In this document: piece by piece, positions 48,322 to 53,021 of the stretch
Layout of the letters: each line of letters starts with the position of its first letter
Numbering within the stretch: the first letter of the stretch is position 1
Assembly (NCBI GenBank): GCA_024228555.1
Contig: JAAETI010000489.1
Coordinates: 8,332-72,331 of the forward strand
Direction: 5' to 3'
DNA from: a bacterium
GTDB taxonomy: Bacteria; Actinomycetota; Acidimicrobiia; Spongiisociales; UBA5794
DNA length: 64,000 nt
Program-made: the position numbers and the translations under genes
The notes under the pieces: model-generated
What the model was told of the DNA's origin: nothing
What the model saw: only the letters and a program-made list of their open reading frames with translations
The model's database searches: none

Positions 48322-48394
48322 GCCCCCATCGTCCAGCGGCCTAGGACTCCGCCCTTTCAAGGCGGCAACGGGGATTCGAATTCCCCTGGGGGCA
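48322..48394 (+). tRNA. tRNA-Glu (TTC)
   Basis: Acceptor GCCCCCA/TGGGGGC, anticodon arm CCGCC-CTTTCAA-GGCGG, T-loop TTCGAAT. Confidence 0.95.
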
Positions 48395-48399
48395 CCCGT

Positions 48400-48477
48400 G
48401 GGGGCGTGGTGAAGTCTGGAGTTCACGCCGGCCTGTCAAGCCGGAGGTCGCGGGTTCAAATCCCGTCGCTCCCGCCA
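48400..48477 (+). tRNA. tRNA-Asp (GTC), CCA encoded
   Basis: Acceptor GGGGGCG/CGCTCCC, anticodon arm CCGGC-CTGTCAA-GCCGG, T-loop TTCAAAT. Confidence 0.95.
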
Positions 48478-48483
48478 CTCACT

Positions 48484-48505
48484 CGCCCGGACATTTGTCC
48501 GGGCG
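48484..48505. other. 10-bp hairpin in the Asp-Phe tRNA spacer
   Basis: CGCCCGGACA-TT-TGTCCGGGCG. Confidence 0.55.
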
Positions 48506-48516
48506 TGTGTGTTGGA

Positions 48517-48589
48517 GGTCAGGTAGCTCAGTTGGTAGAGCGCTGGTCTGAAAAACCAGAGGTCGACGGATCGACGCCGTCCCTGACCA
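48517..48589 (+). tRNA. tRNA-Phe (GAA)
   Basis: Acceptor GGTCAGG/CCTGACC, anticodon arm CTGGT-CTGAAAA-ACCAG, T-arm GACGG-ATCGACG-CCGTC. Confidence 0.92.
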
Positions 48590-48591
48590 CG

Positions 48592-48713: not shown

Positions 48714-50408
48714 CTAGATACTAAACGGTTCGATATCGAACGATCCGTCGTCCTCAAAAACGAACGGGCCACACGCGACGTCAAGCGTGGTCCCGATGTT
48801 CTTCGAGACTGGGAGGCCACCGATAGTTTTGGCTGCTTCTAGAGGATCCGTTCCTGGCGGAACATCGTTAACAGTCTGGACGAACATCCACTTCCTCCAC
48901 GGACCAAGCGGCAGCTTGTCGGCAGGGATCACGCCGTAATAGACACACAAGTATTCACGGTACTTGTCAATCAGTTCTAGCTCTTTGTCTGTGAGCTGGT
49001 CGCCAAGAGAGGTCTGACCGTGGCTAACGGCATCGTCGTCGGTCTTGCGACTTTCGACCCACGCGGTGTTCGTATACGCAGCCGCCGCCACCTTGGGGTA
49101 CTTATCTTGGCCAATGCCTTGCCACGGCCGCAAAACCACCGGATAGTCCTCGTCCTTTCCTACCGGACTCAGGTGCGCGACACAGAAGAACCTGTCGCAC
49201 GGCACCGGCTCCTTCTGCTCGTTCTCAGGGTCTTGGATCACCAGCCCGAACAACCGAATCAGGTCGTCTGGGCGGTAGACGCTGCGGTCCGTAATCAGCT
49301 TGTTGAACAACAGATAGTGCCGGTTCCGTCTCTCCTCAGCGTTGCTGTGCTGGAGCACTCCGCTATCAGAGCGTCGCTCGTAGGTGTACTCCGTATCCAG
49401 AGTGAATGGGATGCCCGGGATGGGGAACTCGCGGTAGCGGATTGCCACATCTGTGTACTCCTCGAGAGTCATGTCACCGGCTTGAGGCGGCGTGGCCGCC
49501 TGACCCTCCCGCGTCGGGTCAACGTCGTCCGACAATGCCGCTGCGATAGCCGCTGCCGCCGCGGCGCCCGCAAGTATTGAACCGCCTACTGTGTTGGGCG
49601 TATCCAACCGCACGAAATTGAGCGGGTTGCAGACATCCAGCTGGAACTCAACATCGAAACCGTTCAATCCCAGCATGCCTGGCTGCACGACGTTCTGCCC
49701 AATACTCCCGTCCCAAACGTGCTCATTCGACAATGCGACCATGTTGTTGGCAGCATCGAATGCAAGAGCACCGAGGGTCCCATACGAGTATGCCTTATCG
49801 TCGAGCCCGGTCGATATTCCGCCGACGAGAGGCTCGAACCGGTCGTCGCGATGACCGCTTTCACCCTCGGTTACGCGCAGCGGCTTCATCTCGATGACAT
49901 CGGTTGGTGTCTCGTCGATATGGGTAGGGATTGGGTCGAGCCCACGCTTGCCGAGTTCCTCAGCTTCGAGTTTGCTCTCAACGTAGAAGTGAATCGCAAT
50001 CTCGTCGGTGAAGCGCCCAGCAACGATCTTGCTACCAACCCCAATACCGGTGATGTTTGGGCGACCAAGCCACTCGCCCTCCAGTCTTTCTTTGACAGCG
50101 AGTGCAGCTTCGGTGGCTGCCTCAACCTCATTGGCAACAACGGAAGCGCCAGGTTCTACGATATCGACCGGCACCCCCTCGATCTCTGTCGGCAAAACGC
50201 TCCAACCGCGCTCCTTGAGCTCGTTCTTGCCCAGTTTGTCAGTGACAGTGATAACGATCGATGCGACACCGGTCAGCTTGCCGGCGGTACGTTTGGTTCC
50301 CGCCCCCACGAGTTCAACGCCCGGTTGCCGCAGCAACCCAGCGGTGTGACGGCGAGCCACATCGATAGCGTTCTCAAGCTCTAGTGCGAATTCCTTGGAT
50401 AGTGCCAT
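48714..50408 (-). CDS. N-terminal half of a Nal1-type trypsin-like (S1) protease (His only) with duplicated pro-domain, hydrophobic helix and C-terminal beta-rich region
   Basis: Two copies of VxGxGxGxK...TG...I...V..K...P..I.G.P.D.VE; then FEPLVGGISTG...YGTLG...LSNEH230V...VVQPG; no DxA or GDSGS; AGAAAAAAIAAAL helix; TDRSVYRP (MG2/Ig-like start). Confidence 0.8.
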   Translation of the reverse strand: MALSKEFALELENAIDVARRHTAGLLRQPGVELVGAGTKRTAGKLTGVASIVITVTDKLGKNELKERGWSVLPTEIEGVPVDIVEPGASVVANEVEAATEAALAVKERLEGEWLGRPNITGIGVGSKIVAGRFTDEIAIHFYVESKLEAEELGKRGLDPIPTHIDETPTDVIEMKPLRVTEGESGHRDDRFEPLVGGISTGLDDKAYSYGTLGALAFDAANNMVALSNEHVWDGSIGQNVVQPGMLGLNGFDVEFQLDVCNPLNFVRLDTPNTVGGSILAGAAAAAAIAAALSDDVDPTREGQAATPPQAGDMTLEEYTDVAIRYREFPIPGIPFTLDTEYTYERRSDSGVLQHSNAEERRNRHYLLFNKLITDRSVYRPDDLIRLFGLVIQDPENEQKEPVPCDRFFCVAHLSPVGKDEDYPVVLRPWQGIGQDKYPKVAAAAYTNTAWVESRKTDDDAVSHGQTSLGDQLTDKELELIDKYREYLCVYYGVIPADKLPLGPWRKWMFVQTVNDVPPGTDPLEAAKTIGGLPVSKNIGTTLDVACGPFVFEDDGSFDIEPFSI

Positions 50409-50417
50409 CGCTGCCCC

Positions 50418-52316
50418 CTAGCTATTGAAGTGGACGTTGAACAGGTTGACGACGTCTCGTATCGGGTTTGCGGTCGCTTGGCCACCTTCGTCGTCGGTCG
50501 GTCCGGCGAAGTTCAGGGCAACCGGACGGAAGCTGCTCAGCTTCACCCAGATCGATCCGGAGTCACCCGCTTGGGAAAGAGGTTGATCCTCCGGGGCAGC
50601 CAACTGGGTTACCGTCACCTGGTTGGTATAGGTAATGACAGTGCCATCGTCCTGGGTTACCGGCGCTGTGGCATTAACAGAGAGAACCGCTCCTCTTGTT
50701 GTGGCGCTGCGTGCACCCGATTTGAACACAAGGTCACCAGTCATGGGGTCTTCAATTCCGCTGTCGCCATTGTCACTGCGGTCAATGGCGATTGTCCCGT
50801 CGAGCGAAAGGACCGGCAAACCGTTGTTGCGGTCATCACCTTGGGCGTCCAGAACGTTGAGATCGACACCACGACTCCCATCGAGAGTCGCCACTGCAGC
50901 GTCCACGTTGCTCGTTGCCCGATTGGACAGCTGCGCAATCTGCCCGATGATGAACTTCGGGTCCGAGCCAGCCGTGACCGAATCAACAATTGCTGACGCG
51001 ATCGCCAGCAGCACGGCAAGGATGATCAGGACAACCTTCCACCAGGGATCCTCAAATGCCAGAGGACCGAACTGACCGGCGTACGCCGGGTTCGGAATCA
51101 CTCGGTAGTCAAACTCAATCGGTAGCCAGAAGAAAGGTTGGAACCGGCACCAGTCGTCTCCGCCAGGACCTTCTCCGAGGCCGCCGCTTTCTGGACCACC
51201 CCAGGGCCCTTCCCAATCGGAGCCCGGATTGTCACCACCCGGCTCGAGACCGGCACATTCGCAATACCGCTTCAGGAGATCGGACAGGAGACAGGGATCG
51301 ACGTCGCCTCCAGCTAGAAGGTCCTCCATGAAGCGACGCAGTCTGTCCCGAACGTCTTCGTCTAACGACCCGCCGCCTCCCGGATGGGGCGGTTTGCGGG
51401 TACAGGGTTTTAGCCTGGCGGCTGCCACCGACTTCTCCGCGTTGTGGCGGTCGACAAGCACTCGTTTGAGGCGCATGTGGACCCGGCCCTCTGGTACCTC
51501 CGCCACGAGCTCGCCGCTGGCTGGATCATACGTGGACCGTGAAACGAATATCTGCCGCAACACCTGGCGATCCGGTGCATCATATGCGTTGTCCCACGCT
51601 ATACGCTGGGCAACGAACGCGGGTTCAGGTTTGCCCGGCCCGGCAGCCGACGCATCGACCTTGAAGTAGATAGTCGTATCGTCCCCAACGCGCAGAGTCG
51701 GCACCCTTATGAATCCGTTCTTCACCTCTTGCTGGAATGCGGCCTGTTCTTGGGAACCCCATGAATCCACAACAACTATCCCCTGGGAGCCAAGCGCCGT
51801 CTTGCTCGAAGGGGCGATACCAATCGAGAATCCCATCCACGGCTCCCAATCGAAGTGCCAATCGTTGCGGATCTTGACACCCATGTACTGCACGCCCTGG
51901 CTCACGTCGAATATGCCGTCGGGGGCCATCATGAGCGTGCCACGGTCGATCGCAAACGGTCGCTGCACCACATCGAATGCTGGGTTGAGGTCCTCACAAA
52001 TGACCACCAGATCGTCGAAGTCTCCATCGCGATTTGCCGCGGCGTTGTCGTCTGCACTCAATACATGAACGATCACGAGCGGGCTCTTGCTTCCGATTCC
52101 CCGGCTTACCAAGCTGTTCTGCCAACCCGAGCCAGCGTCGTTGTTCCACTGCAGCTGCACGGTCCAGCTGTCCCCATCGACAACAACTTCATTGCCGACC
52201 ACGCCAGCGTGAGCGCCGTTACCGAGGACAGCACCGTTCACCACAAACCGTTGCGAGAACCCTGCATTCTTGATTGAAACGCGTAGTTTCCACTTGCCCG
52301 CGAATAGTTCCGCCAT
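50418..52316 (-). CDS. C-terminal half of the same S1 protease (Asp + Ser) fused to N-terminal beta-domains and a TM helix
   Basis: GGGAGG RBS; N-terminal domain ending DGDFDDLVV; Gly-rich linker; TM WWKVVLIILAVLLAIASAIV (aa ~425-445); IIGQIA...D472AAVA, FKSGARSATTRG, GDS586GS, ALNFAG, ANPIRDV; no His motif. Confidence 0.85.
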   Translation of the reverse strand: MAELFAGKWKLRVSIKNAGFSQRFVVNGAVLGNGAHAGVVGNEVVVDGDSWTVQLQWNNDAGSGWQNSLVSRGIGSKSPLVIVHVLSADDNAAANRDGDFDDLVVICEDLNPAFDVVQRPFAIDRGTLMMAPDGIFDVSQGVQYMGVKIRNDWHFDWEPWMGFSIGIAPSSKTALGSQGIVVVDSWGSQEQAAFQQEVKNGFIRVPTLRVGDDTTIYFKVDASAAGPGKPEPAFVAQRIAWDNAYDAPDRQVLRQIFVSRSTYDPASGELVAEVPEGRVHMRLKRVLVDRHNAEKSVAAARLKPCTRKPPHPGGGGSLDEDVRDRLRRFMEDLLAGGDVDPCLLSDLLKRYCECAGLEPGGDNPGSDWEGPWGGPESGGLGEGPGGDDWCRFQPFFWLPIEFDYRVIPNPAYAGQFGPLAFEDPWWKVVLIILAVLLAIASAIVDSVTAGSDPKFIIGQIAQLSNRATSNVDAAVATLDGSRGVDLNVLDAQGDDRNNGLPVLSLDGTIAIDRSDNGDSGIEDPMTGDLVFKSGARSATTRGAVLSVNATAPVTQDDGTVITYTNQVTVTQLAAPEDQPLSQAGDSGSIWVKLSSFRPVALNFAGPTDDEGGQATANPIRDVVNLFNVHFNS

Positions 52317-53021
52317 TGCAAACCTCCCGATGTCCCCTTCGGTTTGGGATTCGATGGAGAGCCCGGTGTCCGCGATCCCCCAGGGTCGACTCCCGTCACC
52401 ACTGTTTATCTCGACGACGCCATAATCCTACGCGGAGCTGGCGCAGTATGGTTCCCCAATCTTGGCAATGAGCTTCGTATAAGTCCCATGCGATCTTCCC
52501 GGACAAGGTTCTCGAGCCGGACTGACGATCTCCCACTCGATCGCGGCTGTCAACGATCCCGCCCGCTCCCAATCCGGGACGGCAGCGGCAATCAGCGCTG
52601 GAGGATGGATCGGACCGTCATCGGGCCTTGGCCGGTCGGCCAATGGGGCTCTTGCCTCCACCATCGTCGGTGCGCACTCGACGATATGGCACGCGAATTC
52701 ATCATGGAATCGATGACCCGTCGGCAAAATAGGCGGCGTCCAGCAAGAAGTGGGAGGGTATCGCGTTGACACCCGGCCGGGTTCAGCCAATGGCCATTCT
52801 GTTGCGCTACCTCGCGTCCGTGCTCGTGCTCGGCAGTTGGCAGAGCTGAAGAGCCGGTGATCAGGATGCGAGGCCTGCCGCGCTGGCTTCGGAGACGCTC
52901 CGGAATGCCCCAGGGCCCAAGCTGGTAGCCCGTTGCTGATCGACGACCGAGGGTGAGCAGCGGAATCAAGTGACAAACCGTGTCGTCTCCAGTGGTTCCG
53001 GTGTTACCGAGTCGTTGCGCG

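Follow-up and report, generated by a model that had tools for sequence, protein, structure and literature searches.

Why should two neighbouring genes each encode half of a protease, and each place a hydrophobic helix at the very point where that protease is broken? The question is raised by two open reading frames (ORFs), here called A and B, in a stretch of 64,000 nucleotides (the window) from contig JAAETI010000489.1 of a bacterium of the class Acidimicrobiia. Gene A (50418-52316, minus strand; 632 amino acids (aa)) and gene B (48714-50408, minus strand; 564 aa) are adjacent and lie head to tail. An earlier note, made from the window alone, had read the two helices as occupants of the loop that joins the protease halves in single-chain homologues, which could pair in or on a membrane and tether the halves, or else as membrane-inserting segments unmasked by autoproteolysis. 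We compared A and B with their relatives (more than 100 homologues of A were found) and conclude from sequence comparison that the pair is a reciprocal chimera of two unrelated modules. One is an ordinary protease, which we call P, and the other is a protease-less protein family, which we call X. The helices are, on the same comparison, the two arms of one membrane-type hairpin of the X family and not part of the protease.

We found that A and B together carry one predicted chymotrypsin-fold protease (clan PA, S1-like) that is genuinely split over two chains. B supplies the first strands of barrel 1 (residues 186-244; 49677-49853, minus strand), ending in QPG (B 242-244), together with the predicted catalytic His230 in 'LSNEHV' (nt 49719-49721, minus strand). 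A supplies the last two strands of barrel 1, barrel 2 and a C-terminal helix (residues 450-632; 50421-50969, minus strand), together with the predicted catalytic Asp472 in 'VDAAV' (nt 50901-50903, minus strand) and Ser586 in 'GDSGS' (nt 50559-50561, minus strand). The triad order His, Asp, Ser is regained when B is placed before A. Among homologues, H230, Q242 and P243 of B and D472 of A are invariant, and G584-S588 of A are at least 90% conserved. The break between B 244 and A 450 is found in all of the approximately 45 species with the pair, where the two parts lie in separate ORFs with no conserved frame.

Ordinary single-chain proteases show how the halves fit together. In BLASTP, residues 34-182 of a 338-aa protease (L081) correspond to B 103-251 (E 1e-18), and its residues 175-337 to A 450-631 (E 1e-12). 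Two further single-chain proteases (L071 and L017) align to B and A in the same manner, and the C-part of A matches proteases of this kind with E-values from 1e-12 to 7e-15. An exhaustive phmmer search with B returned dozens of ordinary proteases of 320-430 aa that match only as far as B 244-252. At the junction in these single-chain proteins, 8-12 residues separate QPG from the strand that leads to Asp. The split described in the earlier note is thus real, with single-chain proteases running contiguously along B up to 244-251 and along A from 450. More distantly, a profile of B matched structures of rice NAL1 (7Y77, 8HAU and others), aligning B 121-235 to NAL1 84-210 (E 7e-5), and a profile of A matched their C-terminal barrel weakly (E 0.36). 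The fold of the A part comes from an AlphaFold2 (AF2) model and that of the B part from sequence alone. In Foldseek, the C-part of the A model resembled SGPB, Thermobifida protease A (TFPA), NAPase and Glu-SGP with probability 1.0 and TM-scores (target) of 0.42-0.52, covering about two thirds of the target; for Thermobifida protease A the root-mean-square deviation was 2.9 Å over 127 columns. Single-sequence searches of the PDB with A and B gave nothing useful, and Pfam, NCBIfam and PADLOC contained no family above threshold for either protein, only a sub-threshold NAL1_N.

Both helices stand where the earlier note had placed them. The segment WWKVVLIILAVLLAIASAIV of A (residues 425-444, nt about 50976-51044) has a best 19-residue Kyte-Doolittle window of 2.74, the next best in A being 1.06. 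In B, GGSILAGAAAAAAIAAAL (residues 275-292, nt 49533-49586) reaches 1.94 over 19 residues, with 0.92 as the next best. Insertion energies were summed on the Hessa scale over 19 residues, with no position terms, and gave -1.55 kcal/mol for the helix of A (helix 1) and +1.55 for that of B (helix 2), every other segment of A or B exceeding +9. Medians over relatives were -1.0 to -2.0 kcal/mol for helix 1 and +1.9 to +2.5 for helix 2. Helix 1 is therefore predicted to insert into a membrane alone, and helix 2 is predicted to be marginal. Helix 2 starts 31 residues after QPG and helix 1 ends about 12 residues before 'IIGQ' (A 456-459), close to the distances first given. We also found both helices in every homologue examined, a point on which the pairing idea in the earlier note depended.

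The two helices are conserved in different ways. Helix 1 (TM1; A residues 428-447, 21-23 residues long; 50976-51035, minus strand) is preceded by the motif GQFGPLAFEDPWWK (A residues 414-427; 51036-51077, minus strand), which also occurs in X forms, and AF2 models one continuous helix over 424-451. Across 93 A sequences, D423, P424, W425, W426 and K427 are invariant, and a conserved stripe of L430, A434, L437, A440 and S441, followed by D445, A449 and D452, marks a single helical face, the remaining positions being hydrophobic but variable (entropy 1-1.8 bits). Helix 2 (B residues 275-292; 49533-49586, minus strand) is rich in alanine, is helical in the AF2 model of an X form, and is at least 82% conserved at nearly every position. 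It is preceded by a linker (B residues 245-274; 49587-49676, minus strand) that reads 'FQLDVCNPLNF.R.DTP' and contains the invariant C260. It is followed by a cap, 'SDDVDPTREGQ' (B residues 293-303; 49500-49532, minus strand), in which S293, D294, D297, P298, R300, G302 and Q303 are invariant in B homologues; the cap motif is also present in X forms. These patterns suggest that helix 1 is exposed to lipid except on a single packing face, and that helix 2 is packed all round. A MAFFT alignment that stacked the helix region of B on that of A was set aside as an artefact of hydrophobic composition and is not evidence of duplication.

The origin of the helices becomes apparent when the relatives are sorted by architecture. 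An A-profile scan, limited to one genome per species, gave 79 loci, to which nine module hidden Markov models (HMMs) were applied on stop-to-stop ORFs. Three architectures were observed. The split pair, in about 45 species, has the order A_N1, A_N2, (A_Cys), A_TM, ProtC in the first gene and B_NTD, ProtN, B_Ala, B_C in the second, always with A before B. X proteins, in about 30 species, are single-chain and protease-less and read A_N2, A_TM, B_Ala, B_C. P proteins are ordinary single-chain NAL1-like proteases with the order B_NTD, ProtN, ProtC. By this comparison of modules, A is the N-half of X with helix 1 and the C-part of P, and B is the N-part of P with helix 2 and the C-half of X. The N-terminal 420 residues of A and the C-terminal 270 residues of B are the two halves of X, in which a beta-sandwich body is followed by 'LPFQDPWWK', helix 1, a loop, the Ala-rich helix 2, 'SD.RDP.R.GQ' and a beta-rich C-domain. 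X proteins share with the pair the body domains, DPWWK, both helices and 'SD..DP.R.GQ'. They differ from it in that they consist of one chain, lack the protease and the Cys-rich module, usually lack the lectin-like first domain as well, and have a short loop with a CC motif. Examples are P0138 (Limnobacter) and the forms from Aquimarina, Marininema and Halosimplex (loci L052-L084).

These results refine what the helices had been taken for. They do sit exactly at the break, as claimed, but they do not represent an elaborated form of the loop, only 8-12 residues long, that single-chain proteases have there. The idea that they act as a pair fared better, since they are very probably one helix-loop-helix unit, adjacent in all 31 X forms, although this unit belongs to the X family. 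The X loop has 21-42 residues, of which 30% are Gly and 22% Ser or Thr, and is depleted in Lys and Arg (2.1% vs 8.8% in the body; binomial p about 5e-18). At least two Cys are present in 30 of the 31 loops and a 'CC' motif in 26. In split pairs, a single invariant Cys (B C260) lies at the place corresponding to the CC of the X loop. Lys and Arg flanking the hairpin in X forms amount to 3.8 on the body side and 0.64 on the loop side, a clear positive-inside pattern, and the topology of the X hairpin looks in-out-in. X forms also have a conserved partner gene, Y, on the same strand and immediately upstream, often overlapping, in 22 of the 31 loci. Y encodes about 280 aa (for example L006:4153-5001) with 'W.LSPDIWV' in its N-terminus. 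Searches of Y against Pfam, NCBIfam and PDB sequences gave nothing above threshold, the nearest being Pgp3_helical (21.2 bits, cut-off 27) and PDB 8vx7 (E 0.12).

Two protease-less proteins provide a further view of the hairpin. P0121 (697 aa) and P0122 (672 aa), which are 64% identical, correspond to A 1-445 joined directly to B 251-564. Both lack the protease and the Cys-rich module, and both keep the B linker ahead of helix 2. The A_N2+TM region gave a neighbour-joining tree that cleanly separates a split clade of 42 sequences from an X clade of 29 plus one truncated; P0122 falls within the split clade, beside cyanobacterial and Dehalococcoidia pairs. The tree suggests that the chimera probably arose once, and that at least one lineage inside the split clade later lost the whole protease, rejoining the helices as a hairpin. 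Of the evidence available, this excision speaks most strongly for the helices being a single functional unit that does not depend on the protease. As to the origin of the chimera, we speculate that a fragment spanning from mid-gene to mid-gene of a tandem protease array was inserted in the loop-coding part of an X gene. A Gemmatimonas metagenome-assembled genome (MAG) encodes a single-chain protease of the same family (L017:11343-12452, minus strand) 3.4 kb from a split pair, so single-chain and split forms coexist in one genome. Separately, P0133 (470 aa; from an NCBI record), close to the Microseira pair in sequence, is a degenerate in-frame fusion with a frameshifted end, in which helix 1 and part of the A protease C-part are followed by B from 'NEHV' on. 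This fusion is likely to be a copy of the pair in decay.

How would such a pair work? Since each chain holds only part of either module, A and B must assemble one-to-one, an assembly that translational coupling would help. Helix pairing is likely, judging from residue conservation, because helix 1 has one conserved face and helix 2 is almost invariant. Within the cytoplasmic membrane or at its surface, the conserved face of helix 1 (L430, A434, L437, A440/S441) would pack against the Ala-rich helix 2, a pairing that would tie the A half to the B half. Structure models bear on where the assembly would sit. We modelled the X form P0122 with AF2 from a hand-checked block alignment built from trimmed pieces and four bridging sequences. 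The model has a mean predicted local distance difference test (pLDDT) of 79.3 and a predicted TM-score (pTM) of 0.81, with both bodies above pLDDT 90, helix 352-374 at about 55-62, the loop below 50 and helix 404-421 at 51-69. Because its pTM is high, the model suggests that the N- and C-halves of X pack together on the same side. A alone gave a pLDDT of 83.4 and a pTM of 0.59, with helix 424-451 between low-confidence linkers. No export signal was detected in A or B, whose N-termini are not hydrophobic by Kyte-Doolittle, in agreement with the earlier note, and five single-chain proteases examined in full likewise have no hydrophobic N-terminus. Since export signals are missing from A, B and the P family and the X halves appear to lie on the same side, the assembled protease is predicted to be cytoplasmic. 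Overall, we consider it somewhat more probable than the contrary that the helices are hairpin arms at the seam of a reciprocal X/P chimera, in which A and B assemble and the helices putatively pair.

Several observations weigh against this proposal. The hairpin has low confidence in the X model (pLDDT 30-69) and is not confidently packed on the body. The predicted insertion energy of helix 2 is positive. The Lys and Arg bias is weaker in split pairs (3.3 on the body side vs 2.0 on the protease side) and does not distinguish a gated hairpin from an exported protease or from helices outside any membrane. Helix 1 is hydrophobic enough for co-translational insertion by the signal recognition particle (SRP), which would export the C-part of A and contradict a cytoplasmic protease. 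The Ig-like and lectin-like beta-sandwich body with conserved Cys is more typical of extracytoplasmic proteins. Residues 401-427 of P0138 also match, below threshold (E 1.7e-4), the NCBIfam 'choice-of-anchor X', a characteristic surface-protein motif that fits poorly with a cytoplasmic body.

If the protease is cytoplasmic, it nevertheless lies where X forms have a loop on the other side of the membrane. The interposed protease would keep the hairpin at the inner face, unable to span the bilayer as it does in X, and once it is cut away at the conserved linkers the hairpin could span the membrane, making the protease a removable plug. That the protease putatively gates membrane insertion in this way is a tentative proposal. 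Slightly more tentative is a hypothetical switch built on it, in which a trigger is sensed by the beta-sandwich/lectin-like body or the Cys-rich module and the protease then cuts its own linkers. Once freed, the arms would enter the membrane, perhaps forming an oligomeric ring with the Ala-rich helices on its inner side, and would change membrane permeability or signalling; the protease-less X with its partner Y would be the ungated version. The second suggestion of the earlier note, a protease-activated membrane effector, lies close to this switch, and we infer that topology makes it more attractive, because export signals are missing and the protease stands at the position of a translocated loop.

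The best surviving of the other explanations, though we consider it unlikely, is a hairpin that spans the membrane constitutively while the protease lies outside the cytoplasm. Helix 1 would then be a signal-anchor exporting the C-part of A, the N-part of B would somehow be exported to the same side, and the body would remain cytoplasmic. The result would be a membrane-spanning sensor-protease, resembling a polytopic protein whose periplasmic loop is large. The in-out-in signature of the X hairpin and the strong hydrophobicity of helix 1, which SRP would recognise, are in its favour, as is the standard topology that a one-chain version would have. B, however, has no signal peptide, and 270 residues at its N-terminus would need to be translocated before the weakly hydrophobic helix is reached. 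To our knowledge, the translocation of such a long N-part ahead of a weak helix is unprecedented in prokaryotes. A and B are moreover never fused and their frame is not conserved, the protease halves have no conserved Cys, the single-chain relatives have no signal peptides, and NAL1 is intracellular (PMC12012508).

A little less probable again is an arrangement that involves no membrane, in which several A/B units form a soluble oligomeric cage, much as NAL1 forms a hexamer, with their helices bundled in its hydrophobic core. NAL1 activity requires a hexameric cage (PMC12012508), helix 2 is conserved on all faces as if buried among helices, and a protease in the loop position cannot cross the membrane. 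Yet helix 1 is hydrophobic all round with one conserved face and others that vary like lipid-facing surfaces, it carries the aromatic-belt motif WWK, and the X loops are depleted in Lys/Arg and have paired Cys. It is improbable that each helix merely anchors its own chain and that the protease and body halves alone drive assembly. Both modules do provide large complementary interfaces, but helix 2 has too little hydrophobicity to enter a membrane unaided, specific packing is indicated by the near-invariant sequence of helix 2 and by the one conserved face of helix 1, and the helices are adjacent in every X form and were rejoined once the protease was lost. A compositional accident or mis-annotated ORFs are already refuted for practical purposes, as order, motifs and catalytic residues are constant in about 45 species of bacterial phyla and archaea.

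A begins with a LecB/PA-IIL-like beta-sandwich (A_N1; residues 1-110; 51987-52316, minus strand; AF2 pLDDT above 90), which Foldseek matched to LecB lectins with probability 1.0 and a TM-score (target) of about 0.6. LecB/PA-IIL is a Ca-dependent fucose lectin. This lectin-like domain is missing from most X-clade proteins. The beta-sandwich body that follows (A_N2; residues 111-300; 51417-51986, minus strand; pLDDT above 85) has HMM matches in split pairs and X forms. The Cys-rich module (A_Cys; residues 301-391; 51144-51416, minus strand) consists of two predicted helices (319-334 and 341-355) between Gly-rich disordered loops, with C305, C342, C351 and C390 near-invariant and further Cys; it occurs in split pairs only, being absent from P0121/P0122 and the X clade. 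It could be a zinc site, a redox site, or a substrate or regulator of the protease.

B begins with two tandem NAL1_N-like N-terminal domains (residues 1-185; 49854-50408, minus strand). B 1-85 and B 112-175 each match the one N-terminal domain of a single-chain protease; B thus has two copies where NAL1 and the single-chain relatives have one. Pfam NAL1_N (PF25608) matched B 121-154 below its cut-off (E 3.5e-4, 20.7 bits, cut-off 27), and precomputed annotation assigns PF25608 to most B homologues, in which the NAL1_N-like domain sits directly upstream of the protease. B ends with the beta-rich C-half of X (B_C; residues 304-564; 48717-49499, minus strand), which has HMM matches in X forms, a pLDDT mostly above 85 in the X model, and 47% identity to the C-part of P0122. 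For the rest of the X body, fold searches returned only generic Ig/MG/DUF11-like sandwich arrays and no enzyme fold. Foldseek of the X and A models found no pore-former fold, gasdermin included, and listed only beta-sandwich arrays, LecB lectin and S1 proteases. A match to the Fusexin1 fold was dropped (TM-scores 0.12-0.16).

The spacer between A and B is 9 nt long (50409-50417, minus strand) and reads, with its flanking codons, TAG GGG GCA GCG ATG, containing a G-rich Shine-Dalgarno-like run. A gap of 4-22 nt with a Shine-Dalgarno-like motif was found in 41 of 43 pairs. A and B share a reading frame in only 22 of the 43, the window and Legionella being among the same-frame cases. Stop-codon read-through to an A-B fusion was considered, as the frames match in the window, and was ruled out because the frame is not conserved across pairs; with about half of the pairs differing in frame, programmed read-through is unlikely. 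The short gaps and the motif indicate translational coupling instead. Around the pair, the window encodes an acetyl-CoA synthetase, an esterase and a tRNA Glu-Asp-Phe cluster, all housekeeping functions. The cluster (tRNA-Glu(TTC), tRNA-Asp(GTC) and tRNA-Phe(GAA); 48322-48590, plus strand) points towards the 3' end of B, the two being convergent. Integration often occurs at tRNA clusters. Local GC content at the pair and the tRNA cluster is the same as in the surroundings and unremarkable. Upstream of A lies a non-coding stretch of about 700 bp (52317-53021), unusually long for the window, in which we found no convincing ORF, Rfam match, repeat or strong promoter-like site. Scans of the locus for Rfam families, repeats, promoters and terminators likewise yielded nothing but the three tRNAs.

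The split pair is present in many bacterial phyla and in archaea, namely haloarchaea (Salinigranum), a Methanosarcinales MAG and a Thorarchaeota MAG. In Legionella pneumophila it is a fixed chromosomal pair (UniProt Q5ZYV3 and Q5ZYV2) in more than 1300 assemblies (1385 blocks of the collection). Phage records contained no copies, and among plasmids the pair occurs only on a 205-kb plasmid of Methylocystis parvus. PADLOC defence models had no match for A or B, and no defence-island context was observed, the neighbours being housekeeping or unrelated genes that are not conserved. A search for a conserved third gene next to the split pair found none.

Which known systems resemble this design? NAL1 (PDB 7Y77, 8HAU, 8PMG and others) and the bacterial P proteins, like the pair, have an alpha/beta NAL1_N domain followed by a chymotrypsin-fold His-Asp-Ser protease and no signal peptide; they differ in being single chains with neither hydrophobic helices nor X domains. 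The NAL1 triad is H234/D291/S385, and the enzyme works as a hexameric cage (PMC12012508). The viral two-component proteases may be the best analogy for how the pair works. In flavivirus NS2B-NS3 and hepacivirus NS3-NS4A, the N-terminal barrel of a chymotrypsin-fold protease is completed by a second polypeptide, and membrane helices adjoin the contributed strands. The viral cofactor, however, gives no catalytic residue and comes from a polyprotein, whereas the pair divides the triad itself; the viral proteases also have no second split module, and no homology to the pair was detected. Bacterial gasdermins with associated proteases couple a protease genetically to a membrane-inserting element. 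The logic is shared, but the pair has no gasdermin fold, PADLOC match or defence-island context, and the gasdermin protease is a separate enzyme whereas that of the pair lies covalently between the hairpin arms. In the F-ATPase c-subunit and the hydrophobic hairpin of pore-forming colicins, a strongly hydrophobic helix and an inner helix rich in small residues (Ala/Gly) are joined by a short loop, and the small residues permit tight helix packing or ring formation. The likeness of helix pairing is by description only, and the hairpin of the pair is flanked by beta-sandwiches, not helical bundles.

We know of no description of a naturally split chymotrypsin-fold protease with its triad over two gene products. 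A search of the literature on the Legionella accessions, split proteases and bacterial NAL1 relatives found no description of the pair, and the two-gene architecture seems not to have been described before. It is an old, widely distributed family, with members in bacteria and archaea. Its architecture links NAL1, a plant yield gene, to a large prokaryotic protease family. Two unrelated modules, each cut and cross-fused, would represent a natural case in which reciprocal domain splitting makes heterodimerisation obligate, the seam lying at a membrane-type hairpin, and may offer a testable model for the coupling of proteolysis to membrane insertion.

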